From positions 1-60,043 of the forward strand of contig CALRAE010000004.1 in NCBI GenBank assembly GCA_943350445.1: a stretch of 60,043 nucleotides of DNA, read 5' to 3'. Shown piece by piece: positions 23,889 to 48,073 of the stretch. The position numbers and the translations under genes are program-made. The DNA is from Candidatus Nomurabacteria bacterium (lineage in GTDB: Bacteria; Patescibacteriota; Minisyncoccia; Phycocordibacterales; UBA9973). Positions within the stretch are counted from its first letter, which is position 1; each line of letters begins with the position of its first letter. The notes below the pieces were generated by a model, which saw only the letters and a program-made list of their open reading frames with translations, had not been told where the DNA came from and searched no databases.

Positions 23889-24638
23889 ATGATAACCACA
23901 TACATATACACATTTGGAAGTATTCTGGTGGTCAGCCTTATTTCATTCATAGGAATTTTTACTCTTGCAATAAAAGAAGAAGTTCTTCGTAAATATATTT
24001 TTATATTCATCAGCATTGCTGTGGGCGCTCTTTTGGGCGATTCTTTTATACATTTAATTCCTGAAGCATTTGCAGATACGACTAACCAAGTTCTTACTAG
24101 TGTCCTAATAATTGCAGGAATACTTTTCTTTTTTATTCTAGAAAAATTTCTCCATTGGCACCACCACGGAGAAGACAAAGAGGACACACACATTCATCCA
24201 GTTGGAAAGTTGGTTTTGTTTTCTGATGGTGTCCACAATTTCATGGACGGCATGATCATAGCAGCGAGCTTCTTGGTGAGCATCCCTGTGGGACTAGCCA
24301 CGACTCTAGCTGTTATTTTACACGAAATACCTCAAGAAATAGGGGATTTTGCTGTGCTTTTACATTCTGGATATACAAAACAGAGGGCCCTCTGGCTTAA
24401 TTTTCTATCAGCCCTAACAGCGATTGCAGGTGCTATTGTGCTCTTTAGTCTAGGGGAGGTGGCAGAGGCATCAACATCTTGGTTTCTACCCATTGCAGCT
24501 GGTGGATTTATATATATTGCCCTTGCAGACTTGATACCTGAACTTCAAAAAACAAAAGAGGCTCGATATTCAATCATGCAGATACTCGCAGTCGTAGCTG
24601 GAGTCTTGGCGATGGTTGCTTTGACTTTTTTAGAGTAA
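23889..24638 (+). CDS. ZIP-family metal transporter
   Basis: HLIPEA, His-rich loop, DGVHNF, HEIPQEIGDF. Confidence 0.94.
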   Translation: MITTYIYTFGSILVVSLISFIGIFTLAIKEEVLRKYIFIFISIAVGALLGDSFIHLIPEAFADTTNQVLTSVLIIAGILFFFILEKFLHWHHHGEDKEDTHIHPVGKLVLFSDGVHNFMDGMIIAASFLVSIPVGLATTLAVILHEIPQEIGDFAVLLHSGYTKQRALWLNFLSALTAIAGAIVLFSLGEVAEASTSWFLPIAAGGFIYIALADLIPELQKTKEARYSIMQILAVVAGVLAMVALTFLE

Positions 24639-24736
24639 AAACATAAATAGCACAAAATTTTTTCTGTCCGAGGGATCCACCCTGTACTCAGGGAAGGGCG
24701 CAGGACAAAAAATTTTGTGCTATTTATGTTTTTACT
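24634..24736. repeat. Long hairpin element, family A (30-bp perfect arms)
   Basis: Arms 24634-24663 / 24707-24736; 37-nt core shared with 48006-48042. Confidence 0.9.
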
Positions 24737-24884
24737 TTTTAAAATTTTTAGTGGTCAGGAATAATTTTGTTTCCGTCAAAACAAAATTTTCACGACCCTG
24801 CCTCGCTTGTTTTCTTTACTAAGAAAACATAGCTGTGGCTCAAACTCAATTAGAAAAAACCCAAGCAGTTGGATTTTCTCTAAT

Positions 24885-26171
24885 TTAGTTTGCCCAACTC
24901 CAGTCAGTACCTGGATTTTTAGCGCTAAAAACTTCGAAGTGAATGTGCGGGCCAGTAGAACGTCCTGTATTACCGACATAGCCGATGATCTCACCACGAG
25001 CCACTGTTGATCCAGTCCTGGTGCCCAACCTAGACATATGCGCATAGAGGGTCTTCGTGCCATTTGGATGTTGTACGATTGCCATATTTCCATAACCTCC
25101 ACCACAACGTGTCTGCCCAACCCTACAACCAGTTTTAACTATAATAACTGTGCCGGATGCAGATGCGTATATAGGCGTACCCGTAGGCGCGCCTATATCT
25201 ATACCACGATGTCCAGGACCATGGAGACCTTGGGTTTTGTGTCCAGTAGGAACTGGGTTTATGAAAAATCCAGTAAGGTTTTGTATTGGATTAGCATCAT
25301 AATAATTCTTATCGCGAATCGGAGCGGAGCTCAAGTTTGAAGCTGGCTTGTCACCTCCTTCATCGGCCATGTCGCCACCAGGAACCATTATTTTGTCACC
25401 TATAGCTAGCTTACTATCAAATGCAATATCATTATAGAAAGCTATTTCACTCACATCTACCTTGTAAAGCTTGGCAATACTCTTTAATGTCTGCCCTTTG
25501 GCTACAGTATGCTCAAGTCCAGAAACAGGCAAAATAAAAAGCACGTCGCCTTCGACGAGCTTGTCACTTTTTTTCATATCATTCGCCCACAATATAGTAT
25601 TTGCAGAGACATCGAACATTTTGGCTATAGCAGAGATAGAATCACCCTTTCGAACCACATAGACACTAGTCTGCAGGGAAGATGGGTCCACCGCATCAGT
25701 GCCGTCTGAGACACCGAGGGGGCCTGTCGCCGGAAGCATGGCATTATCAGAGACGATATTAACATTTACACTAGTATTTATAGGCTCTTCTTTGCTTATA
25801 TCCTTTTTATTTTCCTTTTTCTCGATTACTTCTTGAAAAATAGAGGCTGAAGACACATTGGCCTGTAAAAGTGCCATAGTTTGGGAATTTTGAGGTAATT
25901 TATTATAAAGTTGAGTAGAATCTGTTGTGTTTGTTTGTGCATATGCCTCATCACCTAAAAAGGAAGATAGGAAGCCAGCGTTTGCTGGCAAGGGCTTTAT
26001 CATATAGGAAGCCGACAAGAAAAAGCCAAATAAAATGGAAAATACCAGAATAGAGCGGAATATGTTAAATAGTGATTTTATAAAACAATCTAAAGTATCG
26101 AAAGATTTCCTCTCTAACCCTTTTAAAATAAGGGTAGAATCGCAGGACGACCGAAATTGTACTGCAAACAA
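24885..26171 (-). CDS. LysM x2 plus M23 peptidoglycan endopeptidase (start uncertain)
   Basis: YVVRKGDSIS and HTVAKGQTL LysM repeats; HRGID, YAHM, STGPHIHFE. Confidence 0.92.
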   Translation of the reverse strand: MFAVQFRSSCDSTLILKGLERKSFDTLDCFIKSLFNIFRSILVFSILFGFFLSASYMIKPLPANAGFLSSFLGDEAYAQTNTTDSTQLYNKLPQNSQTMALLQANVSSASIFQEVIEKKENKKDISKEEPINTSVNVNIVSDNAMLPATGPLGVSDGTDAVDPSSLQTSVYVVRKGDSISAIAKMFDVSANTILWANDMKKSDKLVEGDVLFILPVSGLEHTVAKGQTLKSIAKLYKVDVSEIAFYNDIAFDSKLAIGDKIMVPGGDMADEGGDKPASNLSSAPIRDKNYYDANPIQNLTGFFINPVPTGHKTQGLHGPGHRGIDIGAPTGTPIYASASGTVIIVKTGCRVGQTRCGGGYGNMAIVQHPNGTKTLYAHMSRLGTRTGSTVARGEIIGYVGNTGRSTGPHIHFEVFSAKNPGTDWSWAN

Positions 26172-26395
26172 AGGTTCTCGCGACGGTTACTGTCTTCTCC
26201 ATCTTCCAGCCAGCTCATACCATACCTCTCTTCAGTGCTACCCCCATAGAATAGTTCAAAAAGGGTCAAAAGTCAATCTAGTTGGGGATAACGAGTGAAT
26301 AGCTAAAATTTGACAAGACTGTAAAAAAGGTGTATAATTGATAAATAGTCTTAAAAAAATTAGTGTTGAAAAATTAAAAACTATATAATATATTT

Positions 26396-27811
26396 ATGGA
26401 TACAGGACCACAAAATAATGAAGAGACAAATAGAATCGAAGCAGAACTAGAGGCAACGAAGTTGCAAGATGAACAAGCTAGAGCAGAAGGGAATCCACCA
26501 AGTAGTACGCCCACACCCCCTTTTTGGACAGAAACAAAGACAAAAATAGCGAAAATAACAGGCTTGACAGCGGCGACGGGTGTCGGTCTTTTCGGTGCTT
26601 ATAAAGGGACAGAAAAGGGAGCACAATTTGCAGGAGATAAGACTAGTGATTGGATGACCCCTAAAGCAAAAAATGTCCAACAAGTGCCCGCAAGACCAAA
26701 CATGAATCCTGGCTACACAAATAATGAACCAAATTTACCACTAATGGTAAATCCAGTTATAACACCCACAAATTCTACAGAATTTTCTAGAACCAATCTT
26801 CCTCCAGGCCTACCACCTTTAACACCACCATCCGTCAATACTAATAGTTTAGAAAGTGCTGTAACGGCTGCACTAGCTAGAGCAAATGCTGAATCAGCAA
26901 AGTTGAGGCAACAAGTAGAAGATGCAGCAGCCAAGCAAGCAGCACTAGAGAAAAAACATGCTGCGGCACTAGAAGAACAAGCAAAAATGTTTCGACGAGA
27001 AGTACAAATAGTACAGAATGTACAAACACCAATAGAAACAGTGGCACCAGAAAAAACCATAGAGCAAATGAAGGAGGAAAGGAGAGAAATGGAAGCACAA
27101 AAAAGAATGGCGGAAATAGAAGCAAGAAATACAGCAACAGAAGAAAATAATCGCAATGCCCCAGTAGGATACAAAATGGGATCTACAACAGAATTACCAC
27201 CACTTAGAGCTCCAGCAATGAATAAGGCTCCTACGCCAAAACCAACAGGGGTACAATTTAATACAAGGCCTGATGAAGGAGTAAAATTTAATGCCACCAT
27301 CACAGAAGCAAACAGAGAAGCAATAGTAAATGCAATACCGAGACCTCCAGTAGGAGTAAATGTCATAAGCAGAGGTATGGGTGGATACAATATAACCACT
27401 GCCCCAAATCCAGGCCCAGTAAATATTGCTACGGAAGCTCCAACCAACGTTAATGACGGAAACCCTTTCAAGTTATCACAAAAAGCACTTGAAGAAATCG
27501 AGGATATTTACGAAAGAAACTTGGTAAAAATTTTCCCTAAAAACACGCTAGGGAAGTGGATGAATATAAACAAAGAGAGCGCTTATGATTTTATGAGTAA
27601 ACCGAGAGAAAAAGTCCCGAAAGAATACGAACACATATTTACCACTGAAGAATATAAACGCCTCTGCACTTTCTTAGAGAAACTCAAGGTAACAACCGGT
27701 GAGCTTCCCAAGCTCGGTGCCTCTACTGGAAAGCCTGAAAGCATACAAGACTATATGAATAGAACGATGCAAAAAGCCGCATCACAAGGATTACTGTCTA
27801 AAATAAAATAG
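26396..27811 (+). CDS. Pro/Asn/Thr-rich hypothetical protein with coiled coil
   Basis: 471-aa ORF with promoter TTGACA-N17-TATAAT (26310-26338) and a terminator. Confidence 0.8.
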   Translation: MDTGPQNNEETNRIEAELEATKLQDEQARAEGNPPSSTPTPPFWTETKTKIAKITGLTAATGVGLFGAYKGTEKGAQFAGDKTSDWMTPKAKNVQQVPARPNMNPGYTNNEPNLPLMVNPVITPTNSTEFSRTNLPPGLPPLTPPSVNTNSLESAVTAALARANAESAKLRQQVEDAAAKQAALEKKHAAALEEQAKMFRREVQIVQNVQTPIETVAPEKTIEQMKEERREMEAQKRMAEIEARNTATEENNRNAPVGYKMGSTTELPPLRAPAMNKAPTPKPTGVQFNTRPDEGVKFNATITEANREAIVNAIPRPPVGVNVISRGMGGYNITTAPNPGPVNIATEAPTNVNDGNPFKLSQKALEEIEDIYERNLVKIFPKNTLGKWMNINKESAYDFMSKPREKVPKEYEHIFTTEEYKRLCTFLEKLKVTTGELPKLGASTGKPESIQDYMNRTMQKAASQGLLSKIK

Positions 27812-27847
27812 AAAAACAAAATATCCCGAAAGGGGTATTTTGTTTTT
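27812..27847. terminator. Intrinsic terminator
   Basis: aaaaacaaaatatccc-gaaa-ggggtattttgttttt. Confidence 0.85.
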
Positions 27848-27855
27848 ATGCTAAG

Positions 27856-29949
27856 ATGTTATCTGTGGAAGAACACTTAAAAGGATTAAATAGTGAACAA
27901 AAAATAGCAGCACTCCACAAGGATGGCCCGCTTCTTATTATTGCTGGCGCTGGCGCAGGGAAAACAAAAACTATCACGCACAGAATTGTAAATTTAATAA
28001 AAAATGGAGTCGCTCCAGAGAAAATTCTCGCCGTCACCTTTACCAACAAAGCAGCAAAAGAAATGCGAGAGAGAATCATCACAGAAATTGAGAAGAATGC
28101 AAAAGGACAAGAAAGGGTTCCTTTCGTTAGCACCTTCCACTCGCTCGGAGTTTACATTATTAAAGAAAACGCTCGACTGCTAGGGCTGACCAAGTATTTC
28201 ACTATTCTAGATGAAGGAGATGCCACAGGATTTATTAAAGACATATTAAAAGAGCTTGGAGTAGACCCAAAACAATACGATCCGAAGAAAATAAAAAGTG
28301 TAATCTCTCGCGAAAAAGGTAAATTTACCCATCTTACAGATTTTACAGAAAGGGAAGGAAACGGCTCGAACCCTTTTTCGAAAATAGTAGCACAGGTTTG
28401 GAATCTATATGAAAAACAAAAGATGAAAGAGAATTCACTCGATTTTGATGATCTACTTTTGAAAGCGACAAAACTCTTGAAAGACAACGTGGAAATCCGT
28501 AAAATGTATCAAGAAAAATGGGAGTACGTGCACATCGACGAGTATCAAGACACCAATGAGGTGCAGTATTTAATGTCGAAAATGCTAGCAGAAAAGAATA
28601 AAAATATCTGTGTGGTGGGAGATGCTGATCAAAATATTTATTCTTGGCGTGGAGCAAATCTGAAAAATATTTTAAATTTTGAAAAAGATTATCCGAATGC
28701 AAAAATAATTTTGCTCGAAGAGAATTACAGGTCGACCCAAAACATCCTAGAGGCTGCAAATGTGGTAATCAAAAAAAATAAATACCGCCCAGACAAAAAT
28801 TTATTTACAAAAAATGAAACCGGAGAGAAGATAGGATTGTACGAAGCACTCAACGAAGTAGATGAAGCAGACTTTGTAGCGACAAAGATTCTAGAAATAC
28901 GAGATGGAAGCTCCCCAGACTCTTTCTTTGCGGGGTCGCTGTCTCCGCGTGTTCGCGGAGCGCTGCCTCTCGGCTCGTCAGCCTGCGAGACACCCCTCAA
29001 AGAAAAGTCCGGAGAGCTTCCCAGCGACCCCGACAAGATAGAACCTGTTCTGCTGTCAGAAATATGCATCTTATATCGCGCGAACTTCCAATCACGAGCA
29101 CTCGAGGAAGCGATGCTCCGATACAACATCCCATACCAAGTCCTTGGTGTTAAATTCTTCGAAAGAAAAGAAATCAAAGATACTTTGGCATATTTGCGTG
29201 CAGCTTTAAACAGAGACAGCCTTTCCGATATAAAAAGAATTATAAATTTCCCAGCGCGAGGCATCGGCAAAGTCACGTTAGTAAAAATTTTTGCAAATGA
29301 AATAGAAAGCTTGCCACCCAAGGTAAGAATCAAAATAAATAGTTTCTATGAAACACTCGAAGAAATAAAGGAAAAAATTCATAGTACCAAAACAAGTGAT
29401 GTAATAAAATTCGTGGTGAAAAAGTCTGGAATTGAAGCAGAACTTTCTTCGGGGACTGAAGAAGATATAGAAAGACTTGAAAACATTAAAGAGTTAGCCA
29501 CTTTAGCACTTAAATATGATAATTTAGACGCCGGCCGTGGCATAGAAAAGCTTCTGGAAGATGCTTCACTAGCATCGGACCAGGACTCATTAATCGTGAA
29601 TGAGGAGAAATTAAAAGAAAAGAAAGAGATAAATGCAGTGAAACTTATGACTGTGCATGCTTCAAAAGGCCTCGAGTTTAAATACGTCTTTATCACTGGT
29701 CTAGAAGATGGCCTGTTCCCACATCAAAGACGAAGTGAGGACGTAAATATCGACACCGAAGAAGAGCGTAGACTATTTTATGTGGCGGTGACTCGTGCGC
29801 GAAGTAAATTATTTTTATCCTTCGCAGATTATCGGACTATTTTCGGCTCACGACAAATAAATGCTCCATCGGAATTTATTTCCGACATTCCAGCCGATTT
29901 ATTAGAGAAAGAAGGAGAGAAAGGAGGAATTAAAACTATTTACATCTAA
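27856..29949 (+). CDS. pcrA: UvrD/PcrA DNA helicase
   Basis: AGAGAGKT, TFTNKAA, DEYQDTN, VGDADQNIY, LMTVHASKGLEF, EERRLFYV. Confidence 0.96.
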   Translation: MLSVEEHLKGLNSEQKIAALHKDGPLLIIAGAGAGKTKTITHRIVNLIKNGVAPEKILAVTFTNKAAKEMRERIITEIEKNAKGQERVPFVSTFHSLGVYIIKENARLLGLTKYFTILDEGDATGFIKDILKELGVDPKQYDPKKIKSVISREKGKFTHLTDFTEREGNGSNPFSKIVAQVWNLYEKQKMKENSLDFDDLLLKATKLLKDNVEIRKMYQEKWEYVHIDEYQDTNEVQYLMSKMLAEKNKNICVVGDADQNIYSWRGANLKNILNFEKDYPNAKIILLEENYRSTQNILEAANVVIKKNKYRPDKNLFTKNETGEKIGLYEALNEVDEADFVATKILEIRDGSSPDSFFAGSLSPRVRGALPLGSSACETPLKEKSGELPSDPDKIEPVLLSEICILYRANFQSRALEEAMLRYNIPYQVLGVKFFERKEIKDTLAYLRAALNRDSLSDIKRIINFPARGIGKVTLVKIFANEIESLPPKVRIKINSFYETLEEIKEKIHSTKTSDVIKFVVKKSGIEAELSSGTEEDIERLENIKELATLALKYDNLDAGRGIEKLLEDASLASDQDSLIVNEEKLKEKKEINAVKLMTVHASKGLEFKYVFITGLEDGLFPHQRRSEDVNIDTEEERRLFYVAVTRARSKLFLSFADYRTIFGSRQINAPSEFISDIPADLLEKEGEKGGIKTIYI
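28906..29021. repeat. In-frame hairpin element (family B) inside pcrA
   Basis: ggaagctc..tctttg.gggg / cccc.caaaga..gagcttcc arms; 17 nt identical (inverted) to 46627-46643. Confidence 0.85.
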
Positions 29950-29966
29950 CATGTATAATTAGAAAT

Positions 29967-31517
29967 ATGAAAATATTTAACAAACAAATATTTTATGTGT
30001 TCAGTTCATTTCTGGCTGGATTTGCCATAATGACAATTGAGCTTATTTCTTCAAGAATAGTGGCCCCAATAATAGGATCTTCTGTTTTTACATGGACATC
30101 AGTAATAGGAATAACAATGCTGGGACTTGCTCTTGGTGGCTATATTGGCGGACAAATAGCAGACAAAAAAGAAGGCAGGGAAACACTTCCAATTATATTT
30201 CTAATTTCTTCAATACTTGTTTTCTTAATACCAATATTGGCAAAAAATACCGATTTTATTATAAATTCATCTACTTCCATATTAAAATTGAATTTATATT
30301 TATCCGTGTATCTTTTTCTATTACCGACATTCTCCATAGGACTCATTTACCCAATAATACTAAAACAATTTGTCAGCAATCTTTCATTAATTGGTAGTCG
30401 TTATGGCATACTATCGTTTGCTTGGTCAGGAGGGGGGATACTTGGTGTGTTTTTAACAGGATTTTTCTTTATATCAAATATTGGGAGCAGTGAAACACTT
30501 TGGCTTATGTCTATTGTACTGTTTTTAGTTGGAGGGATTTTTGCATTAGAAAACAAAATAAACAAAAAAACACTTTGGCTTTTTATATTAACAATAATTG
30601 TTACATCTATACTTTTTTATACAACTCAACAAAAAAAACAAAGCAAGAATATAATATTTCAAAAAGAAACAAACTATTACGATGCAAGGGTTATTGACGC
30701 ATATCTTCCACTATATGAAAATTCAAGAATTTTAATGCTAGATTTTGATTTTCACAGTATTGAATCAAAAAAAGTGGTGCAAAATTACCCAACTATATAT
30801 CCAGTTTTTGCTAATCTAAAAAGTAATATAGAGAGAATATTAGTAATAGGTGCTGGAGCATATACTCTGCCGAAATATTTTAAAAATTATTATAAAAATT
30901 CAGATATTTCAGTTGTAGAAATAGATCCTGAGATGATAAATATTGGTGAAACTTTTTTTGATCTAAAAAAATACGACATAAAAACAATTGCAGGGGATGC
31001 CAAAATAGTAATAAAGAAAAACAAAGAAAAATATGATGTAATTTTTGGTGATTCTTATAATTCATTTATTTCTGTTCCTTGGTATCTCTTAACTAAAGAA
31101 TGGAATGAGCAAGTAAAAGAAAAATTAACTGAAAACGGGGTATACGCTATAAATTTTATCGGATCTCTGAATGGAAACAAATCAGAATTTACAAAAAGTG
31201 TTTTAAATACTTTTAAAATTAGCTTCCCGAATTTTTACATCTTTGCATTCGGAGAAAATCTAGAACATGCTCAAAGTATTGTATTACTAGGAGTAAAAGG
31301 AGAGCTACCCATAAGTGAACAAGGGCTTCAACAGAAATTGTCAATTGGGGAAAACGATTTTTTGGCAAATAAAATAATTCCGGCTGCATTTTTTAAAAAT
31401 ATACCATCTATAATACTCACAGATAATTTTTCACCCATTGAAAAACTGATGGAGCCCATGATAAAAGATTATTTTCCAAAAAATCTAGCCCAGCTTAAAA
31501 AAGTATTATTACCATGA
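29967..31517 (+). CDS. Fused membrane domain / spermidine synthase-like SAM-binding protein
   Basis: ~7 TM helices then ILVIGAGAY, VVEIDPEM, YDVIFGD, ILTDNFSP. Confidence 0.88.
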   Translation: MKIFNKQIFYVFSSFLAGFAIMTIELISSRIVAPIIGSSVFTWTSVIGITMLGLALGGYIGGQIADKKEGRETLPIIFLISSILVFLIPILAKNTDFIINSSTSILKLNLYLSVYLFLLPTFSIGLIYPIILKQFVSNLSLIGSRYGILSFAWSGGGILGVFLTGFFFISNIGSSETLWLMSIVLFLVGGIFALENKINKKTLWLFILTIIVTSILFYTTQQKKQSKNIIFQKETNYYDARVIDAYLPLYENSRILMLDFDFHSIESKKVVQNYPTIYPVFANLKSNIERILVIGAGAYTLPKYFKNYYKNSDISVVEIDPEMINIGETFFDLKKYDIKTIAGDAKIVIKKNKEKYDVIFGDSYNSFISVPWYLLTKEWNEQVKEKLTENGVYAINFIGSLNGNKSEFTKSVLNTFKISFPNFYIFAFGENLEHAQSIVLLGVKGELPISEQGLQQKLSIGENDFLANKIIPAAFFKNIPSIILTDNFSPIEKLMEPMIKDYFPKNLAQLKKVLLP

Positions 31518-32383
31518 AAGCAAAAAAATCACTCGGGCAAAATTTCCTAAAATCAGAAGTCGCTCTGCGACAGATTGTGGAAGCGGGAGAAATAAAACCT
31601 GACGATATTATTTTAGAAATAGGGCCGGGAAAGGGGGCACTGACGGAGAAGCTTTTAGAGAAGGCAAAAATGGTGATAGCGGTAGAAAAAGACTATGAAC
31701 TTATTTTCTTTCTAAAAGAAAAATTCGCCGAACAAATAAAGTCGGGGGCACTTATTTTAATACAAGGAGATATTTTAGAATTTAGTGTTAACAAAACAGT
31801 TCTGGAACTTTTTTCAGGTCCTCGGTTCCCCGGGTCCCTCTCCCGGCCAGACCATGCAAAAAGCTCAGAACTGTTTTGTTATAAGCTAATCGCAAACATC
31901 CCATACAACATCACTGGTGCAATTTTGAAAAAGTTTTTAACAGAAGAAAACCAGCCAGAGAGGATGGTGCTAATGGTGCAACACGAAGTCGCGACTAGAA
32001 TTTTGGCTCGTAACGGCAAAGAAAGTATTTTATCTATCTCGGTTAAAGCATATGGCACCCCAAAAATGGTCGCAAAAGTTGATAAAAGATATTTCAGCCC
32101 AGCTCCCAAGGTGAATTCAGCAATCATTGCCATAAAAAATATTTCAAGAAAGAATTTTACAGAAAATATGGGGAGTCGCGCTTTAATGGACGGTGCGCGA
32201 CATGATTTCGCTAAATCAGAAGAAAGGTTTTGGGGAATAGTCAAAGCAGGCTTTGCCCATAAGAGAAAAAAGCTCTCTGGCAACCTAAAAGACATATGTC
32301 AAAGACCGTCTTTGACACCTTATGAAAACAAAAGAGCCGAGGATTTGTCCTTAAAAGATTGGATTATCTTAAGTAGGGGATAA
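31514..32383 (+). CDS. rsmA: 16S rRNA adenine dimethyltransferase RsmA/KsgA
   Basis: KKSLGQNFL, LEIGPGKGALT, ANIPYNIT, F.PAPKV.S. Confidence 0.96.
   Translation: MKAKKSLGQNFLKSEVALRQIVEAGEIKPDDIILEIGPGKGALTEKLLEKAKMVIAVEKDYELIFFLKEKFAEQIKSGALILIQGDILEFSVNKTVLELFSGPRFPGSLSRPDHAKSSELFCYKLIANIPYNITGAILKKFLTEENQPERMVLMVQHEVATRILARNGKESILSISVKAYGTPKMVAKVDKRYFSPAPKVNSAIIAIKNISRKNFTENMGSRALMDGARHDFAKSEERFWGIVKAGFAHKRKKLSGNLKDICQRPSLTPYENKRAEDLSLKDWIILSRG
31789..31881. repeat. 93-nt in-frame hairpin element inside rsmA
   Basis: 16-bp perfect arms taacaaaacagttctg/cagaactgttttgtta around a GC-rich core. Confidence 0.85.
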
Positions 32384-32424
32384 ACTGCTGGCAAATAAAC
32401 CTTTGTTAGTGGTACAATTAAAGG

Positions 32425-33366
32425 ATAATCAAATTAAATTGGTTCAAGTACAAAAGGATAATTTGGATCGCTTTTGCGGTAGTTTTTATTGTGCTACTTT
32501 TTCTTTACAAAACCAACTTTTTATCTAAAAATATTGAAACATACCAAAAAAATAGTAACGGGGAAGGATTAACTTATGAAAACAATACGGTGGCGGATTT
32601 AATAAATCAAGATACAGACGGTGATGGAATATTGGATTGGCAAGAGAGTTTATATGGGCTAGATCTAAACAAAAAAGAAACCACACCAGGAATACCAGAC
32701 AGCGAAGCCATAAACAAGCTGAAAATTACAGAATCAAATAGCACCAAAAAAACAAGTGAAAGCAGTCCAATTGTGGAGAATCTATCAAAGACTGACCAAT
32801 TCTCTAGAGAACTTTTTGCGACCATAGCGGCAGCCAGCCAAAATGGCACAGTAGATCAAGCCACGATAGACCAATTGGGAGCTTCTTTGGCTGAAAAAAT
32901 AAAGAACCCTGTCGTTAGAAAAGTTTATTCGATTTCCGACATGAAAATCGTAAATGATGACAGTCTGCAAGCTTTCATTAATTATAATAATGCTTTAAAC
33001 GAGATTTATGTGAAATATCCAACAGGGAATTATACAATAATCGAGGTATTGCAGAAATTTATGATTGATGAAAACAATGTTGATGCTAGTGTGCTAGTAA
33101 AACTTGATCCAATTATTAAACAAATCAATCAAGTGATAACAACGATGGTAAAGACAAGTGTGCCACAGTCCATCTCCTCTCTACATTTAAATATGATAAA
33201 TTCGCAAGAAAGATTGGTGGAAAATTTGATTGATATAAAACTTTATGATGATGACGCCATCGTAGCTTTGGGCGGTTTCAGCAAGTATGCAGAAAATGCT
33301 ACCAAATTGGACACAGACATCCATGCCCTTGGAAATACAGTTACCCAAAAATTTAAACAACAATAA
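32425..33366 (+). CDS. Membrane-anchored protein with a DTDGDG Ca-binding (thrombospondin-3-like) motif; first gene of the secretion cluster
   Basis: Frame is open back to ATA 32425, which restores a signal anchor; track ORF starts at 32491. Confidence 0.75.
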   Translation: MIKLNWFKYKRIIWIAFAVVFIVLLFLYKTNFLSKNIETYQKNSNGEGLTYENNTVADLINQDTDGDGILDWQESLYGLDLNKKETTPGIPDSEAINKLKITESNSTKKTSESSPIVENLSKTDQFSRELFATIAAASQNGTVDQATIDQLGASLAEKIKNPVVRKVYSISDMKIVNDDSLQAFINYNNALNEIYVKYPTGNYTIIEVLQKFMIDENNVDASVLVKLDPIIKQINQVITTMVKTSVPQSISSLHLNMINSQERLVENLIDIKLYDDDAIVALGGFSKYAENATKLDTDIHALGNTVTQKFKQQ

Positions 33367-33414
33367 GATTGAAACTTCACTGCCAAATGAATACAAGGTA
33401 TAATAGATAATAAA

Positions 33415-35967: not shown

Positions 35968-36000
35968 AGAGTAGTTTTAAAGTTCATAAAGTGAATTAAA

Positions 36001-36384
36001 ATGAAAGATTTTATTAACTGGCATAAAATAAAAAATAATATAGAGGGAAAAAGGCAGAGACTTAATTTTCAGATTCGCGACATATTATTTTGTTCAATTG
36101 GAGAGAATGTTGGTTTTGAACAAGACGGAAGAGGTCAAGAATTTTTACGACCAGTTGTTATCATTAAAAAATTCAATAAGGAAGTATTTTGGGGAGTGCC
36201 GCTTACTCATACAGAAAAAAAGGGGAAATATTATTTTAGTTTTAATTTAAATAATGAAGTAAGCGTCGCGATTCTCTCGCAGTTGAAGTTATTTGATGCA
36301 AAAAGAATAAAATACAAAATAGGCATGATAAACGAGAAAGATTTTGATATCCTCAAAGAAAAAATCAGGCAATTGCTTGCCTGA
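36001..36384 (+). CDS. PemK/MazF-like toxin (orphan)
   Basis: GENVGFEQDG...RPVVIIKK...GVPLT...ILSQLKLFDAKRI pattern. Confidence 0.82.
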   Translation: MKDFINWHKIKNNIEGKRQRLNFQIRDILFCSIGENVGFEQDGRGQEFLRPVVIIKKFNKEVFWGVPLTHTEKKGKYYFSFNLNNEVSVAILSQLKLFDAKRIKYKIGMINEKDFDILKEKIRQLLA

Positions 36385-36436
36385 TTTTTTCTTTGTTTAC
36401 CTCCACTTTCGTGGAGGAGGGCCGAAGCCATTTGTA
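36355..36436 (-). ncRNA. Candidate ~80-nt convergent structured RNA (putative antitoxin)
   Basis: Upstream promoter; hairpins with UUCG, GAAA and GCAA loops on the minus strand; U-tract end. Confidence 0.6.
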
Positions 36437-36441
36437 AGTAA

Positions 36442-36469
36442 AGTATAGCAAACCGGAAATAAATGTCAA
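36442..36469 (-). promoter_or_regulatory. Sigma70 promoter TTGACA-N16-TATACT with extended -10 TG
   Basis: Direct sequence. Confidence 0.75.
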
Positions 36470-36539
36470 ATAGGATAAAATAGTGCTAAAATATAAACGG
36501 GTTTCAAAGTAAAAAGTTCATAAAGTTTTTTTAGTAAAA

Positions 36540-38921: not shown

Positions 38922-38945
38922 GAATAGTGAGAAGTTAAACACAAA

Positions 38946-40025
38946 ATGGATAAAATAGAATTACAACAAAAAATAGCTTTATATTATTCAAAACTTCCAC
39001 CGAGTGTGCAGGTGTTGTTTTCTAGTATGAAATGGCTCGAAACTCTCAGGATAATCAGCCGAAAATATGGTCTAAATGACAAGCAGACAGAGACCTTGGG
39101 CACAGAGACGACCTTGGTGTTGCTTGGTATCATCCACCCTGTGGAATATGAAGAAGTTTTAACCAAAGAATTAGGATTGTCGACAGACTCCACAGACAGA
39201 ATGCTAGTGGAAATAGAAGAATCAATCTTGAAAACTATCCGCCCGCAACTCTCTCAGGCTTTTGAGGCTAATAAGAGTGCAGAATCAGGGGAGGCGCCCT
39301 ATGTGGGCTCAGATTTAGACCCACGTTTCGATAAACTGCCAACAGAAATCAAAAATATAATTAAAGAATCAAATTATCAGGAGACACTCTACAATGCTGG
39401 CAAGGAATACAATCTAAATGTGGCACAGATGGGCATCCTAGAAACAGCCGTCACTGATCTAACAGTTGGCTCTATCAAGCCCGATGCTTTTGAAAATTTT
39501 CTAAAAGCCAATCTAGGGATAGCGCCAGAAACAGTGAGAAAATTGGTAAATGAGCTCAACGATCAAATATTTAAAAAAATACGAGAGGCTTTAGTCAGAA
39601 ACACTGAAAGGAAAGAGGTGCTCGAAAGAGATCGAGACACAACTAAACAAGAAGAGGCTTTAATTTTTGAAAATAAAAGGGATACAGCCATACTAAATGA
39701 GCACGGCATCGAGATTGTGCCCGAAAAATTAGAGATCACAGGAAGACAGCAACCAGTAATAAACAAAGAAGAAATACTTAAAAAAGTGGAAGAAATTAAA
39801 ATTGTCCCAATACAGAAAGCTTTTGTTCAAACCAACACACCAAAAACAGAAACCTCAACAGTGAGTGAAAAAAGGGTTGACATGATATTGTCCCAAAAAT
39901 TGGCTGGTTCTATAAAGATCGGGGCAGCAGAAACGAGCCATTCATTACCAAACTTACAGTCTTCATCTTCAAGTGGAAAGAGTTTGGGTGGTAAAGCAGA
40001 CCCGTACCGAGAAATACCGGAGTAA
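38946..40025 (+). CDS. Conserved hypothetical protein of the secretion cluster
   Basis: Two ~100-aa internal repeats; C-terminal DPYREIPE. Confidence 0.75.
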   Translation: MDKIELQQKIALYYSKLPPSVQVLFSSMKWLETLRIISRKYGLNDKQTETLGTETTLVLLGIIHPVEYEEVLTKELGLSTDSTDRMLVEIEESILKTIRPQLSQAFEANKSAESGEAPYVGSDLDPRFDKLPTEIKNIIKESNYQETLYNAGKEYNLNVAQMGILETAVTDLTVGSIKPDAFENFLKANLGIAPETVRKLVNELNDQIFKKIREALVRNTERKEVLERDRDTTKQEEALIFENKRDTAILNEHGIEIVPEKLEITGRQQPVINKEEILKKVEEIKIVPIQKAFVQTNTPKTETSTVSEKRVDMILSQKLAGSIKIGAAETSHSLPNLQSSSSSGKSLGGKADPYREIPE

Positions 40026-40086
40026 ATGTTCTATAATGAAGTAGCTGGTTGATAATTCGTAATTATTAATTTGTAATTCATAATCC

Positions 40087-40512
40087 ATGCAGTTTAAGGT
40101 TCCACAATTTTTAGAAATAGAAGACAAGATATTCGGCCCATTCACTTTCAAAGAGTTCGTCTATTTGGCGGGTGGAGCTGGCTTGTGTTTTATAATTTAT
40201 AAACTACTTGGACTCACCTTGGGCGCCATACCCATTTTGGCTGTAGCGGGACTGTCTATCGCACTTGCACGATACAGACCCAACAATAAACCTTTCATTG
40301 AAATGATCGAGGCAGGATTTGGTTATCTTATTCAAAGTAAGCTGTATATTTGGAAAAGACGCAAGAATAAGGTTAATACAAAAGAGCAAGAAAGAGAGAA
40401 TGCGGAAAGGATAATAAATAGAGACACAGTAAGACTAGGAGGAAATAAGTTGAGAGATTTGGCTTGGAGTTTAGATGTACTTGATTTAAATAAACAGGGA
40501 AGAAATAAATAA
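40087..40512 (+). CDS. PrgI-family (VirB3-like) protein
   Basis: QFKVPQFLEIEDKIFGPFTFKEF plus two TMs. Confidence 0.88.
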   Translation: MQFKVPQFLEIEDKIFGPFTFKEFVYLAGGAGLCFIIYKLLGLTLGAIPILAVAGLSIALARYRPNNKPFIEMIEAGFGYLIQSKLYIWKRRKNKVNTKEQERENAERIINRDTVRLGGNKLRDLAWSLDVLDLNKQGRNK

Positions 40513-40513
40513 T

Positions 40514-41152
40514 ATGGCATTAAACGCAAAAGCAACTCAAGAGTTTGTCCCGATCAAGGAAGTACGCGATGGAATAATCGTGCTAAAAGACGGCAGTCTA
40601 AGGGCTATTGTGCTTGCTAATTCAGTAAACTTATCACTGAAGTCAAGCGACGAACAAAAAGCAACGATACTGCAATTCCAAAGCTTTCTTAATACATTAG
40701 ATTTCACTATACAGATATCAGTACAAAGTAGAAGGCTAGACATCCGACCATATCTTTTACTTTTAGAAAGCAGAATGAAGATACAAAACGAACCATTACT
40801 CAAGTTACAAACCAAAGAGTACATCGAATTCATTCGGAATTTCACCGAATCAGTCAGCATAATGACAAAAAGTTTTTTTGTGGTGGTGCCGTATACTCAC
40901 ACTGTCTTTAAATCAAATTCGAGCCTATTCAAAAGATTTTTTTCAAGAAGAAATAAAGAAGAGGCAGAAATAGCAAAACAGGAAGATTTCGAAGAAAAGA
41001 GGTCCCAGCTCGAAGAGAGGGTGAGCGTGATCCAACAAGGACTGAGCCGTTGTGGCATAAAATCAGCCCAGCTCGGCACGGAAGAAGTCGTAGAAGTATT
41101 TTATAAAGTCTTCAATCCAGGAGAAGTAGAAGGCAAGATTAAATTAGAATAA
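40514..41152 (+). CDS. VirB4-associated protein (TraC/VirB4 N-terminal-like)
   Basis: TQEFVPIKEVRDG, NLSLKS.DEQ, FLNTLDF; lies between prgI and virB4. Confidence 0.75.
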   Translation: MALNAKATQEFVPIKEVRDGIIVLKDGSLRAIVLANSVNLSLKSSDEQKATILQFQSFLNTLDFTIQISVQSRRLDIRPYLLLLESRMKIQNEPLLKLQTKEYIEFIRNFTESVSIMTKSFFVVVPYTHTVFKSNSSLFKRFFSRRNKEEAEIAKQEDFEEKRSQLEERVSVIQQGLSRCGIKSAQLGTEEVVEVFYKVFNPGEVEGKIKLE

Positions 41153-41155
41153 GTA

Positions 41156-41193
41156 AGCTAGGCAAGACCTAACATGTTAGGTCTTGCCTAGCT
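41156..41193. repeat. Perfect 38-bp palindrome
   Basis: agctaggcaagacctaacatgttaggtcttgcctagct. Confidence 0.9.
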
Positions 41194-41205
41194 CGCAACA
41201 AAATT

Positions 41206-43068
41206 ATGGGATTTTTTGATAAATTATTTAAAAAGAAAAATACGGGACTTAATGGAAGTGCATATTCTTCTCTGGAAACACGCGCCTCTATTTTAGCCGT
41301 TCAACCAGAACAAATATATGAATCAGCCAGCCTAGAACTCCAGGATGTCATATCTCCATCTGCCCTCAAGATCGAACCAAAATCCTTAAACCTAGGGGAT
41401 AAAATAGCTCGTACCTTTTTCATAATATCTTACCCGCGATACTTAAGCGATAATTGGTTGTCTCCAATAATTAACTTAGATAAAGTTTTTGATATTTCAA
41501 TTTTTGTGCATCCGATAGATACTTCCGTAATACTCCGACAATTTCAAAAAAAGGTAGCAGAAATACAGAGCCAGATAAATGCACGCGAAGGGAAGGGAAT
41601 GGTGCGTGATCCAATACTCGACACTTCATACCAAGATTTGGAAGGTCTGCGTGATAATCTAAGTCAATCACAGGAAAAAATGTTTGACGTTGGTATTTAC
41701 ATTACTATCTATGCAGATAATGATTTAGAGCTCTTCAAAATAGAGAGCGAGATCAAGTCAATGCTCGAATCAAAACTCATATATATAAAGCCAGCGCTTT
41801 TCCAACAAGAAGATGGATTTAAGAGTGTTATACCTATTAATACCGACCTACTAAATATCCACCAGAAGTTGAATTCTGAGCCTCTTTCGAGTGTTTTCCC
41901 ATTTATTTCTTTTGACCTAACTTCAGACAAGGGAATACTCTATGGTATCAACAGACATAATTCTAGTTTGGTTATCTTTGATCGATTTTCTCTTGAGAAC
42001 TACAACTCTGTAACTTTTGCAAAGTCTGGTTCGGGTAAATCCTACGCCATAAAACTAGAAATCTTGAGATCTTTGATGTTTGATATCGATGTCATCGTCA
42101 TAGATCCAGAAAAAGAATATGAATTCTTGGCAGAAGCTATCGGTGGAAGATATTTCAACATTTCTCTTTCTTCATACCACCACATGAACCCTTTTGACCT
42201 GCCGATACCGCGTGAAGATGAAACAGCAGAAGACGTCTTGCGATCAAACATTATCAACCTTGTGGGACTTTTCCGATTGATGTTGGGTGGGCTCACACCA
42301 GAAGAGGATTCGATGGTGGACCGAGCAATTTCAGAGACTTATGCGATAAAAGACATTACCCCAGAATCAGATTTCTCAAATATTGAACCTCCACTTCTTT
42401 CTGATTTTGAAATGGTGCTGACAGGTATGGACGGCAGTGATTCTGTAGTGCAACGTTTGGCTAAATATACTCGCGGCTCTTGGTCAACATTTTTAAATCG
42501 ACCAAGTAACGTGGATATAAACAAAAAATTTGTTGTTTTTTCTGTTCGTGATATGGAAGACGAACTAAAACCAGTGGCAATGTACATTATTATGCATTTC
42601 ATCTGGAATGCGATACGCAAGAACCTCAAAAAGCGCCTGCTAATTGTCGATGAAGCTTGGTGGATGATGAAATCAGAAGATACTGCGTCTTTCCTATATT
42701 CTATTGCCAAAAGAGGCAGAAAATACTATCTGGGACTTGCCACCATCACCCAAGATGCGGCAGACTTTATGAAATCCCCATATGGTGTACCTATAGTTAC
42801 AAACTCTTCTATTCAGCTACTCCTAAAACAATCACCTACAACTATTGATGTTTTACAAAAAACCTTTAACCTAACTGATGAGGAGAAATATTTACTTTTA
42901 GAGTCAGGAGTAGGGGAAGGGATATTTTTCGCCGGTTTGAAACATGTCGCCATCAAAATCATTGCATCTTATACTGAAGATCAGATCATCACCTCGGATC
43001 CTTCACAAATACTATCAAACAGAAAAGCAAAGGAAGAGCAGGAGGCGGCACAGACAGAGAAAAAGTAG
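41206..43068 (+). CDS. VirB4-like ATPase
   Basis: Walker A AKSGSGKS, IDPEKEY, Walker B IVDEAW, KRGRKY, TQD. Confidence 0.9.
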   Translation: MGFFDKLFKKKNTGLNGSAYSSLETRASILAVQPEQIYESASLELQDVISPSALKIEPKSLNLGDKIARTFFIISYPRYLSDNWLSPIINLDKVFDISIFVHPIDTSVILRQFQKKVAEIQSQINAREGKGMVRDPILDTSYQDLEGLRDNLSQSQEKMFDVGIYITIYADNDLELFKIESEIKSMLESKLIYIKPALFQQEDGFKSVIPINTDLLNIHQKLNSEPLSSVFPFISFDLTSDKGILYGINRHNSSLVIFDRFSLENYNSVTFAKSGSGKSYAIKLEILRSLMFDIDVIVIDPEKEYEFLAEAIGGRYFNISLSSYHHMNPFDLPIPREDETAEDVLRSNIINLVGLFRLMLGGLTPEEDSMVDRAISETYAIKDITPESDFSNIEPPLLSDFEMVLTGMDGSDSVVQRLAKYTRGSWSTFLNRPSNVDINKKFVVFSVRDMEDELKPVAMYIIMHFIWNAIRKNLKKRLLIVDEAWWMMKSEDTASFLYSIAKRGRKYYLGLATITQDAADFMKSPYGVPIVTNSSIQLLLKQSPTTIDVLQKTFNLTDEEKYLLLESGVGEGIFFAGLKHVAIKIIASYTEDQIITSDPSQILSNRKAKEEQEAAQTEKK

Positions 43069-43157: not shown

Positions 43158-44144
43158 ATGCGATTAAAATTCTTAACATTATATTTAATCACCATATTTG
43201 CAGTATTTGGATTAATTCCTATACAAAAGGCAGACGCTACTCCTACTGATAGCATCTTGGTTAGCATGGTGCCTCCGAATCCAAATCCTAACGCAAATGT
43301 AACCATAACCCTAAAAAGCTATGCGTATAATTTAGACAGCGCCCAAATATCTTGGTCAATAGCTGGCAAAGTTATCATTTCAGAAATTGGGAAAAAATCA
43401 TTTTCCACCACCGCGCCTGCGGCTGGAGGGGAGATAAATGTGGTAGCCACGTTATACTTACCAGACGGACCCATCGAGAAAAATATATTAATACAGCCTT
43501 CTGTAATGATATTACTATGGCAAGCCATGGACTCTTATGTCCCGCCTTTCTATAAGGGCAAGGCTCTACCGACAGCTGATAGTGAAGTGAGGGTGACTGC
43601 TATGCCAGAAATAAGAACCGGCTCTCTGTTAAGTGATCCAAAAAATATGATCTACTCTTGGAAAAAAGATTATACGAACAATGTAGATGGCTCTGGTTAC
43701 GGAAAAAATTCTTTTAGTTATGTTGGTGATTATTTAGACGATTCAAACAATGTATCCGTCATCGCTTCAACTATAGACCAAAAGTTTTCCTCCGAGGAAA
43801 ACATATACATAGGCATATCAACGCCAAAAATATTGTTTTATAAAAACGACAACAAGCTAGGGACAATTTGGGAACAAACACTTCTAAATGAGCACAAAAT
43901 AGAGGGGAGTGAGGTAGTGCAAGTAGTGCCTTATTTTATTTCACCAAAACAACTGCTGAATCCACTTTTAGTGTGGGACTGGTTCATCAATGATGAAAGA
44001 GTAAATTTGGCAAGCTTTAGGAAAAACCTAATGCCACTGCAAGCACAGAGTGGAGTCTCTGGAAGATCGAAGCTCAAGCTTGAAATTACAAATAAGTATA
44101 AAATTTTCCAGACGGCTAATAATGAGATAGAAATAAGTTTTTAA
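43158..44144 (+). CDS. Exported beta-rich (Ig-like) protein
   Basis: Signal peptide; P.NPNP, W.A.DSYVPPFYKGKALP. Confidence 0.8.
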   Translation: MRLKFLTLYLITIFAVFGLIPIQKADATPTDSILVSMVPPNPNPNANVTITLKSYAYNLDSAQISWSIAGKVIISEIGKKSFSTTAPAAGGEINVVATLYLPDGPIEKNILIQPSVMILLWQAMDSYVPPFYKGKALPTADSEVRVTAMPEIRTGSLLSDPKNMIYSWKKDYTNNVDGSGYGKNSFSYVGDYLDDSNNVSVIASTIDQKFSSEENIYIGISTPKILFYKNDNKLGTIWEQTLLNEHKIEGSEVVQVVPYFISPKQLLNPLLVWDWFINDERVNLASFRKNLMPLQAQSGVSGRSKLKLEITNKYKIFQTANNEIEISF

Positions 44145-44147
44145 AAT

Positions 44148-45233: not shown

Positions 45234-45237
45234 TTTT

Positions 45238-46590: not shown

Positions 46591-46706
46591 AAAAAATTAA
46601 GAAATAAACTTTTGAAGGGGTTTCGTAGGCTGACGAGCCGAGAACTTCAGAATTTTTCAAGCTTCGAAAAATTCGTACCGGAAAAAGTTTGATTTCTTAA
46701 TTTTTT
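46591..46706. repeat. Long hairpin element, family B, filling the gap between two convergent stop codons
   Basis: Arms aaaaaattaagaaataaactttt / aaaagtttgatttcttaatttttt; core cgtaggctgacgagccgag. Confidence 0.85.
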
Positions 46707-47187
46707 AAATAGAGCCCGTATATTTTATCACCACTCGGCGAGAAAGGCCCATACCTGTTGACTCAGTTTTAAGATCTGTCGCACCAGAGAGGAATTCGTG
46801 TACAATACGACGTTCAAAAGCTGACATCGGATCAACTTCAATGCTTGATTTGAAATATCGTGCCCTTTCTCCCATCATGTGAGCCACGGCTCGGACGTTT
46901 TCTACACGCTTTTTTTGAAAACCATTAATATCAATTAAAATATTGGAGGAATTAGATTCTGGATCTTTTACTTTATCTGTTATATCAACCTCAATCATTC
47001 TACGAACAAGATGATTTAGGGCGTACAAAGCTTCACCATCATGACCTATAAAAAAGTGCGGTTCATTGACCTCGACTGAGAACCAGGTGCTGTCTGCACC
47101 ATCAGGAGTAATGACAATATCTTTTACCACAACCCCAGTTTTCTCAACCAACTCTTTTATTAAATTTTGTATCTTTGACTTATCCAT
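46705..47187 (-). CDS. jag: Jag/KhpB-like KH-R3H RNA-binding protein
   Basis: IGHDGEALYAL, PMSAFERRIVH; follows yidC. Confidence 0.88.
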   Translation of the reverse strand: MDKSKIQNLIKELVEKTGVVVKDIVITPDGADSTWFSVEVNEPHFFIGHDGEALYALNHLVRRMIEVDITDKVKDPESNSSNILIDINGFQKKRVENVRAVAHMMGERARYFKSSIEVDPMSAFERRIVHEFLSGATDLKTESTGMGLSRRVVIKYTGSI

Positions 47188-47189
47188 AT

Positions 47190-47939
47190 CTACTTTTTAC
47201 TAATTAAAACCTCAACTTCCTTATCTAAAACCTTCTTTTCGGTCCTATTAACATAAATCTGCTGGCCTACAGAGAAAATATTACTCGTTATCCAATATAA
47301 TGCAACTGCACCAGAAATACTGTAAGCAATCCAAGTAATGAGAATTGGGAAAACATACTTCATCTGCATCTGCATGCTTTTAGTGAAACTCTCTTGAAAA
47401 GATCCACCAGGAGTAGCAGAAACTGTAGGTTTTGGCATAAAATGTGCTTGAAGATATTGCGACACACCCGCCAAGAGCGCCAAAAGTAAACTTTTAGCAC
47501 CTAAATCTATAAAGCCCAGGAAAATCATGTTTGTTTCTGTTGGTATGTGAATAAAGGAATAGAGTAGGCTTCCATCGAAAGCAATACCTTTGAAAAATAC
47601 ATAGTAAAGAGCAAAAATAATAGGGATCTGGATTAAAACTAAAAGGCAACCGGAAAAAGGATTGGTTTTGTGTTTTTTGTAAAGTTCAAAGGTTAACCTC
47701 GCTTGTTCTTCTTTACTAGCTCCACTTTTCTTAATTTTATCAATTTCTGGAGCAAGCATCGTCATTGCTGCCTGATTTTTGATAGATTTCTGAGAAAAAG
47801 GGAAGAGGAGAAGTTTAACTAAAATAGTAAGTATTATTACTGATAGACCAATGTCGCCACCCGGTATAACTGAAACTAAAAAAGCCAATGCGTTTATTAG
47901 AGGTTTATATAAAAAGACATTCCAAATATCATGAATCAT
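47190..47939 (-). CDS. yidC: Membrane protein insertase YidC
   Basis: NPFSGCL..LIQIPI, LYWITSN. Confidence 0.95.
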   Translation of the reverse strand: MIHDIWNVFLYKPLINALAFLVSVIPGGDIGLSVIILTILVKLLLFPFSQKSIKNQAAMTMLAPEIDKIKKSGASKEEQARLTFELYKKHKTNPFSGCLLVLIQIPIIFALYYVFFKGIAFDGSLLYSFIHIPTETNMIFLGFIDLGAKSLLLALLAGVSQYLQAHFMPKPTVSATPGGSFQESFTKSMQMQMKYVFPILITWIAYSISGAVALYWITSNIFSVGQQIYVNRTEKKVLDKEVEVLISKK

Positions 47940-47973
47940 AGTCCAATTCTATATGAAAATGCGAGAAAATGCG

Positions 47974-48073
47974 AGAAAATGTACAATTGCACAAATTTTA
48001 CACTTCCGAGGGTCCCACTCGGTAATCCGAGAAGGGCGCAGGAATGTAAAATTTGTGCAATTGTACATTTTCT
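47974..48073. repeat. Long hairpin element, family A (29-bp perfect arms)
   Basis: Arms 47974-48002 / 48045-48073; core 48006-48042. Confidence 0.9.

Follow-up and report, generated by a model that had tools for sequence, protein, structure and literature searches.

Family A, a palindromic repeat with a constrained core in one genus of Candidatus Nomurabacteria

We studied a hairpin-forming repeat, here named family A, of which two copies lie in a 60,043-nt stretch of DNA from a Candidatus Nomurabacteria bacterium (positions 1 to 60,043 of contig CALRAE010000004.1, assembly GCA_943350445.1; the whole stretch is called the window). The genome that holds the window (G000) has 616,971 bases in 15 contigs and a coding density of 89%. 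Family A is restricted to one genus of Candidatus Nomurabacteria, and its outer and inner stems covary massively around a core G-C helix that is simply invariant. We see an even chance that it is a non-autonomous, structure-selected palindromic repeat, of a class with the Rickettsia-specific palindromic elements (RPEs), with a conserved, putative recognition core.

Hairpin anatomy, covariation and range

The two hairpins of the window, copy 1 and copy 2 (Table 1), had been described in a sequence-only reading as perfect arms of 30 and 29 bp enclosing 37-nt cores, with inner stems (CCCTG/CAGGG and CTCGG/CCGAG) that differ by two compensatory pair changes and with a stop codon abutting each hairpin. 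Coordinates, pairing and compensatory changes were confirmed, and the stop codons proved to be those of a ZIP transporter gene (copy 1) and of yidD (copy 2). The spacer between the arms measures 43 nt in copy 1 and 42 nt in copy 2. Folding energies were -54.0 and -60.9 kcal/mol, respectively (z of -11.5 and -15.0), and none of 200 shuffles was as good. The core pattern matched twice in the window versus 0 matches in 100 dinucleotide-preserving shuffles. The arms of the two copies had also been taken as unrelated, which holds only in part: a core-adjacent AATTTT...AAAATT tract is common to both, and the arms of copy 1 recur elsewhere. The sequence GCACAAA(A)TTTT adjoins the core in the arms of both window copies, and copy 1-type arms, AATAGCAYAAA(A)TTTTTTCTGT with three or four A, were present in five copies from three genomes at unrelated loci (four of them outside G000, in two genomes), so that the arms belong to the repeated unit.

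A strict pattern for the 37-nt core detected in G000 the two window copies only. A looser pattern added a third copy in G000 and, when 36 other genomes of the genus were scanned, 18 more sequences in 8 of them, with none in 24 genomes of other families; these 21 sequences formed alignment A1, from which the covariance model R1 was built. With R1, G000 had seven copies, two of them carrying the variant core GG-UGUGGGUCCCA...GAAGGGUCAAG-CC, and the genus had 289 matches in 95 of 151 genomes (74 of the 113 high-quality ones), from 1 to 17 per positive genome. When the three genomes flagged as unpublished (G083, G146 and G154) were excluded, the family was present in 93 of 148 genomes and Y1 genes (see below) in 106 of 148. 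Within the order but outside the genus, one genome out of 149 gave matches, which were weak (28-43 bits) and showed a further variant core. Record titles of exact-pattern matches corresponded to Candidatus Nomurabacteria or Paceibacterota metagenome-assembled genomes (MAGs); those in GC-rich genomes (Streptomyces, Bradyrhizobium) were taken as chance on account of their long gaps. Four exact-pattern matches in viral contigs were not confirmed by the model, and BLAST of copy 1 gave no match in collections of phages (50,697 records) and plasmids (72,556 records). Rfam 15 recognized over the whole window only four tRNAs at the gathering threshold, and around both copies and with the core alone (E up to 10) it returned chance, hairpin-driven matches to miRNA and other families, the best at 38.6 versus 100 bits. 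The two outcomes that would have spoken against the sequence-only reading, namely that only these two copies exist or that the core belongs to a known Rfam family, were thus not observed.

Size and location were analyzed in 99 copies, the last four of the 103 model matches being dropped as weak and from other families. The median length of the whole hairpin was 87 nt (range 74-113). Read on the CCGAGGG strand, the 5' half consists of the distal stem, AAUUUU, a bulge or small internal loop of 1-5 nt, two to four covarying pairs ending in CC, and GAGGGNCCCAC; the 3' half continues with a variable hairpin, GAAGGGCGCA, GG and partners, AAAAUU, and the distal stem. The outer stem is A/T-rich, 12-32 bp long, and drifts in sequence with its pairing kept, while the AAUUUU/AAAAUU tract with the bulge on its 5' side is conserved family-wide. 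In the nearly invariant core, the strands GAGGGNCCCAC and GAAGGGCGCAG form a short G-C helix between internal loops. The capping hairpin presented 4-6 bp with a loop of the UACU/UAAU type, a GAA loop, or an insert of 17-25 nt. In alignment A2, obtained by fitting the 103 matches to the model, a procedure that favours structure, 95.8% of 2434 cells were paired versus 78.0% in shuffles, and 17 of 24 pairs had changed on both sides; none of 500 shuffles attained any of these measures, and sliding of the partners lowered pairing to 61% or less.

Mean pairwise identity by region was determined in 32 copies at seven orthologous intragenic sites. It was 94.5% in the core, 82% in the proximal arms, 69% in the inner hairpin, 68% in the host flanks (60 nt on each side) and 51% in the distal arms, which still pair and differ between subfamilies. 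That the core stands above the host flanks and that the distal arms drift yet remain paired indicates a constraint on nucleotides and pairing, not on an encoded peptide. As the sequence-only reading had noted, this distribution is the opposite of that of MITEs (miniature inverted-repeat transposable elements), the termini being the least conserved part. Its proposal of a structure-selected, non-autonomous element also gained support from the many copies, the strong covariation, the core kept while distal arms drift, and the lack of an Rfam family.

Watson-Crick pairing accounted for 1744 arm pairs. Read on the core strand, 84 further pairs were G·U, 10 were A·C, which the opposite strand would show as G·U, and 29 were of other kinds; both wobble types were handled alike, and the cells represent sequences, not independent events, with some positions inherited within subfamilies. 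By class, G·U to A·C was 56:6 in copies antisense to an open reading frame (ORF), 23:3 in intergenic copies and 4:1 in ORF-sense copies. The asymmetry of 84 to 10 indicates that one specific strand is constrained. Transcription-linked deamination as the cause of the G·U pairs was rejected by inference, as it would put the wobbles on the mRNA strand, the opposite of what was observed; the excess among intergenic copies also counters it.

Locations and turnover of sites

Long ORFs span 54 of the 99 copies and the remaining 45 are intergenic or other, so that the earlier suggestion of a motif specific to 3' ends was not sustained. All three reading frames are used, in both orientations, which argues that no single peptide is selected. 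The host genes in G000 encode Dus (sense) and UvrC, the DNA polymerase III delta' subunit and an FAD-linked oxidase (all antisense). The core strand was antisense to the gene in 46 intragenic copies and sense in 8; intergenic copies often touch a stop codon, and those between co-directional genes were antisense in 10 cases versus sense in 3. Stop codons were rejected as the origin of this orientation bias, given that the flipped element leaves the host frame open in 34 of the 46 antisense copies; the mean number of open frames was 1.30 in the sense and 1.69 in the antisense direction. In G000 the core strand was opposite the G-rich, gene-rich strand in four of seven copies, on the same strand in one and ambiguous in two, too few to separate replication from transcription. 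Splicing or bypass of the intragenic copies was rejected too, since the frame is open without stops in all 54 and in all 18 insert-bearing Dus alleles (see below).

Copy 1 has the stop of the ZIP gene on one side and, on the other, a convergent gene for an M23/LysM peptidase on the negative strand; this copy and its subfamily have an A-run before the hairpin, a T-run after it and convergent genes on both sides. Copy 2 lies between yidD and yidC in the rnpA-yidD-yidC-jag operon, antisense to the operon. Neither copy 2 nor the 54 intragenic copies can be terminators of host transcripts. Public contigs of related lake-water samples break at the copy 1 hairpin (one ends at 24722, another starts at 24634). 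In contigs of four DNA runs over 21400-41399 no joint skipping copy 1 was found, the contigs merely stopping at the hairpin; the skips of 79-94 nt seen in those contigs are not hairpins.

The Dus gene offered the widest comparison, with 25 orthologues (5 of 30 loci, L064, L075, L078, L080 and L084, failed the motif filter and were left out). The site following the GNPWLF motif was empty in 7 of the 25, one of these alleles coming from the unpublished G083, and in 18 it contained in-frame inserts of 21-120 nt: three family A copies in sense, one family A copy in antisense with a long inner hairpin, and 14 others, among them plain near-perfect palindromes and two alleles whose core is of a different family. 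In an AlphaFold model of the G000 Dus protein (23-sequence alignment; mean predicted local distance difference test score, pLDDT, 82.5) the insert was the only long low-confidence stretch, residues 248-272 being predicted with pLDDT below 50 between the barrel and the C-terminal helices. Across species, loci L060-L077 show many different in-frame palindromes after GNPWLF; those of L069 (22-bp stem) and L073 (21-bp stem) are near-perfect and coreless, and the loops of some resemble remnants of the A/T tract or of another family's core, which suggests that cores can be lost while arms stay. At the Dus locus of genome G015 (L066), family A is in the opposite orientation, which could be due to inversion of the core between inverted-repeat arms or to an independent insertion.

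Empty orthologous sites, which the sequence-only reading had proposed to look for, were found at Dus, at yidD-yidC and at C6:3418. In the closest relative, G013 (Dus 90% identical), the yidD-yidC spacer is empty, and G000 is 103 nt longer there; the left edge of the extra stretch is ambiguous owing to a 10-nt tandem duplication, TGCGAGAAAA, at 47960-47969 and 47970-47979. The more distant G084 (locus L118) carries family A at this position, and the arms of its copy are different. Of six G013 copies compared with G000, one site was empty in G000 (C6:3418), one (Dus) also had family A, and four had a hairpin of a different family, at C12:4858-4979, C3:49276-49395, C2:47080-47236 and about C1:65850-65960, the G013 counterparts being loci L017, L019, L020 and L021. 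The arms also differ at these four sites, for which reason the swapping of core cassettes inside resident arms was rejected. The idea that arms are inverted copies of the target flank was rejected as well, since the copy 2 arm has only about 7 nt in common with the empty yidD-yidC site and arms recur at unrelated loci.

Sites therefore fill, empty and change occupant. From this turnover and the coding density we infer a small number of permissive sites under heavy insertion pressure; resident hairpins may also be targeted.

Candidate explanations and partners

If family A is an RPE-like repeat, its elements would settle where a genome with 89% coding density tolerates about 90 extra bases, that is, directly after stop codons and in linkers or loops of housekeeping proteins, where they would be translated in frame. 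The constraint acts on the nucleic acid and not on the peptide, and on one strand only, which implies that selection sees one strand folded into a hairpin, be it of RNA or of single-stranded DNA (ssDNA). The folded strand would most likely be a recognition module for a trans-acting factor that propagates or maintains the element, with mobility probably proceeding via a single-strand intermediate.

RPEs are described in PMC2229807 as elements of 105-146 bp occurring in 19 reading frames, with one host protein translated and active. Like the RPEs and the protein-coding palindromic repeats of Wolbachia, family A consists of small, long stem-loops in one reduced-genome lineage, has no transposase of its own, and occurs both between genes and in frame in conserved protein genes, a likeness at the level of description. 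Its 54 in-frame and 45 intergenic or other copies, the Dus, UvrC, polymerase III delta' and FAD oxidase hosts and the empty orthologues place it in this class. The contrast between core and distal arms (94.5% and 51%), the strand-specific wobbles, the 46:8 antisense bias and the sister families that compete for common sites are the points in which family A appears to differ from the RPEs.

Other known repeats share fewer features. REP/REPIN sequences are short repeats that form hairpins and on which a Y1 HUH enzyme is believed to act in single-stranded form (PMC3333891, PMC2817692 and PMC3116915). Family A resembles the REP/REPIN-RAYT system in its short hairpin-forming repeats and in a genus with many RAYT-like Y1 genes; REPs are extragenic and REPIN arms conserved, whereas family A is over half intragenic and conserved in the core. 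A GTAG/CGTC tag was found at the ends of family A in 1-4 of 99 copies per end, no more than in control windows 60 nt away. The Correia/NEMIS, ERIC, RUP and YPAL MITEs are, according to PMC2229807, non-autonomous, 100-200 bp in length and transcribed into long stem-loops, and some are fused in frame; family A is equally non-autonomous, folds as a long stem-loop and has in-frame copies. MITEs, however, are defined by target-site duplications and by terminal inverted repeats that are conserved and stem from a parent insertion sequence (IS), and the termini of family A are its least conserved part; no parent IS with family A-like ends was found among the sources compared, to which ISfinder did not belong. 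IS200/IS605-type single-strand elements (PATEs) are marked by strand-specific hairpins near the ends together with a Y1 TnpA that is part of the element or works on it; of these traits, the pairing of one strand was observed in family A (84 G·U versus 10 A·C), and no link to Y1 genes was seen (see below). GC-rich palindromic clusters and double-hairpin elements of fungal mitochondria have GC-rich structured cores in A/T-rich genomes and are multi-copy, sometimes in coding regions; belonging to another domain of life and having other sequences, they provide a lead only. In the literature searched on repeats of the Candidate Phyla Radiation (CPR), Patescibacteria, Nomurabacteria or Parcubacteria we found no description of these elements, and a search of PMC6006769 gave no mention of Parcubacteria, Patescibacteria or candidate phyla.

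RAYT-like Y1 HUH proteins are the obvious candidate partner, yet nothing links Y1 to family A. G000 carries a pair of Y1_Tnp (HUH) genes, 211 and 227 aa in length (Table 1), whose best NCBIfam match was REP_Tyr_transpos, below the cut-off (34-39 versus 80 bits); upstream of the gene in C13, a short fragment reads like a second Y1 N-terminus. Genus-wide, at least one Y1 gene was present in 109 of 151 genomes. Genes of about 210-250 aa reach up to 14 per genome, a striking expansion for genomes of about 0.7 Mb. G000 also encodes RNase III; it gave a single TnpB-like signal below the cut-off (18.3 versus 26.3 bits) and no match to reverse transcriptase.

Several results weigh against a mobile RPE-like repeat served by such an enzyme. 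The co-occurrence with HUH/RAYT genes proposed beforehand did not appear: Y1 genes are present, with no significant association (odds ratio 1.84 and p = 0.13 from a 2x2 table of 73/22/36/20 for family A and the presence of a Y1 gene, kinship uncorrected), and those inspected are not flanked by the family. Twenty-two of the 95 family A genomes had no Y1 gene, among them G013 and G070, in which nine and 13 copies coexist with no Y1 match, and in 14 Y1 loci inspected out of roughly 430 Y1 matches there was neither a family A match nor a recurrent flanking hairpin. No clear target-site duplication was present in the two filled/empty pairs, which showed a 10-nt tandem repeat on the left side only (yidD-yidC) and at best an imperfect 6-nt repeat (C6:3418). 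In ssDNA transposition of the IS200/IS605 type the active strand is expected on the lagging-strand template, which would make it sense with respect to co-directional genes; the bias of family A runs the other way. Finally, many copies are shared between species at orthologous sites, and the core has kept its sequence far better than a decaying selfish insert would be expected to, an outcome for which a host function is at least as good an explanation as mobility.

A more far-reaching form of the RPE-like reading, which we put forward tentatively, is that the cores are functional single-stranded modules under purifying selection, both within housekeeping genes of a minimal genome and next to them. 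Family A and its sisters would then be REPIN-like, vertically inherited replicators residing largely in coding sequence and read opposite to the host mRNA, as active antisense RNAs or as ssDNA substrates of RAYT-like Y1 enzymes, with the families competing for few permissive sites.

The main rival is a multi-copy structured RNA that serves the host, either as an intergenic 3'-end element (bidirectional terminator, stabiliser or processing site) or as a cis-antisense RNA, under purifying selection at each locus and with the intragenic copies functional too. It has real support from core conservation and from long-lived orthologous sites: the core exceeds host coding DNA in identity at such sites (94.5% versus 68%), common sites are occupied across many species, G·U is tolerated on one strand as in RNA, a minus-strand gene ends -12 to +16 nt from the model match in 17 listed intergenic copies, and members of the copy 1 type have a 5' A-run and a 3' T-run between convergent genes. 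We nevertheless consider it rather unlikely: for 46 of the 54 intragenic copies the only evident transcript runs antisense to the core, no conserved promoter accompanies the element (conservation between copies stops at the arms), sites can be empty in close relatives, and species of a single genus carry anywhere from 0 to 17 copies. Moreover, four of the six G013 sites hold a different hairpin family in G000, which argues against a locus-specific need for the family A core.

An RNA-borne element with a small catalytic or processing core, for instance a new self-cleaving ribozyme in a long P1-like stem, would account for the antisense bias by counter-selection in sense mRNA. The long variable closing stem, invariant internal-loop core and variable peripheral hairpin have the appearance of such an RNA, and the sense orientation is disfavoured in transcripts (46:8 within genes, 10:3 between co-directional genes) for reasons other than stop codons. 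This origin is improbable, however, considering that no Rfam 15 ribozyme or other family matched, even at E up to 10 with the core alone, that genes such as Dus retain eight sense copies, from three species, and that G000 lacks a reverse transcriptase match. Still more improbable is a double-stranded DNA site, palindromic or cruciform, for a nucleoid, partition or restriction-modification protein, the hairpin being a by-product of two-fold symmetry. The elements are indeed perfect or near-perfect inverted repeats with a short palindrome, GGGTCCC, in the core, but the core as a whole is asymmetric, a duplex binding site needs neither compensatory pairing nor free arm sequence, and the 84:10 asymmetry of G·U to A·C would be meaningless for duplex DNA. 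Chance similarity or an assembly artefact, to which the tendency of public contigs to break at the hairpin might point, is already refuted by the absence of matches in 100 shuffles, by the 289 found in 95 independently assembled genomes and by open frames running through 54 copies.

Neighbouring features and significance

Six other long GC-core hairpins of different families were observed in the window, none at the Rfam gathering score (Table 1). The one at 21491-21580 has a core resembling that of family A, GUGGGUCCCC ... CCGAGGGCGAAGG, and one module, GGCTGACGAGCCGAG, occurs both in the 46591-type core and in the reverse complement of the 28916-type core. Copy 2 is surrounded by an origin-type gene cluster, and the cumulative GC-skew minimum of the window is located away from it, near 24-26 kb. 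Two long ORFs had no Pfam family at the thresholds given in the table.

Table 1 Features of the window and Y1 genes of the genome that holds it
Feature	Position	Strand	Remarks
Family A copy 1, whole hairpin, 103 nt	24634..24736	+	R1 match 24646-24726, 83.1 bits
Copy 1, 5' arm	24634..24663	+	30 bp, perfect; distal part locus-specific, middle common to subfamily, proximal part the AAAATTTTTT tract
Copy 1, core, 37 nt	24668..24704	+	CCGAGGGATCCA, inner hairpin CCCTG-TACT-CAGGG, AAGGGCGCAGG
Copy 1, 3' arm	24707..24736	+	30 bp, perfect pairing with 5' arm
Family A copy 2, whole hairpin, 100 nt	47974..48073	+	R1 match 47985-48064, 75.4 bits
Copy 2, 5' arm	47974..48002	+	29 nt, 100% complementary
Copy 2, core, 37 nt	48006..48042	+	CCGAGGGTCCCA, inner hairpin CTCGG-TAAT-CCGAG, AAGGGCGCAGG
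Copy 2, 3' arm	48045..48073	+	last base is first base of yidD stop codon complement
103 nt absent from closest relative G013	47970..48072	+	orthologous yidD-yidC spacer (empty site)
ZIP transporter gene	23889..24638	+	stop codon overlapped by copy 1 arm
Origin-type cluster	46705..50263		jag/R3H, yidC, yidD, rnpA, dnaA
jag/R3H	46705..47187	-	
yidC	47190..47939	-	
yidD	48073..48288	-	copy 2 arm terminates on stop codon
rnpA	48254..48610	-	
dnaA	48911..50263	+	about 850 nt from copy 2
Other hairpin	17122..17266		
CCA-adding/poly(A) polymerase-type gene	20887..22581	-	
Other hairpin	21491..21580		in frame in the CCA-adding/poly(A) polymerase-type gene
Four clustered tRNA genes	22541..23752	both	
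ORF, 471 aa	26396..27811	+	no Pfam family at E <= 0.001
Other hairpin	28916..29047		in frame in a long + ORF
Other hairpin	31789..31881		in frame in a long + ORF
ORF, 458 aa	45214..46590	+	no Pfam family at E <= 0.0001
Other hairpin	46591..46706		between convergent 458-aa ORF and jag
Other hairpin	55524..55644		
Y1 gene	C5:11836-12057 (L274 1279-1914; 211 aa)	-	
Y1 gene	C13:365-586 (L275 164-847; 227 aa)	+	

The genomes of CPR bacteria are among the smallest and densest known, and repeats that persist in their essential genes call for an explanation. The combination found here (an invariant core that outlasts host coding sequence, paired stems that evolve freely, strand asymmetry and orientation bias) was not found reported for bacterial MITEs in the literature searched. 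For the annotation of CPR MAGs it matters that annotated proteins gain 25-40 residues from the inserts and that assemblies break at palindromes, and such palindromes may fragment the assemblies of these genomes. Should the core prove to be a module for recognition or catalysis, it would represent a new structured nucleic-acid motif absent from Rfam 15, and the genus would be a natural system of competing hairpin families, next to many Y1 HUH paralogues, in which to study the persistence of replicators.

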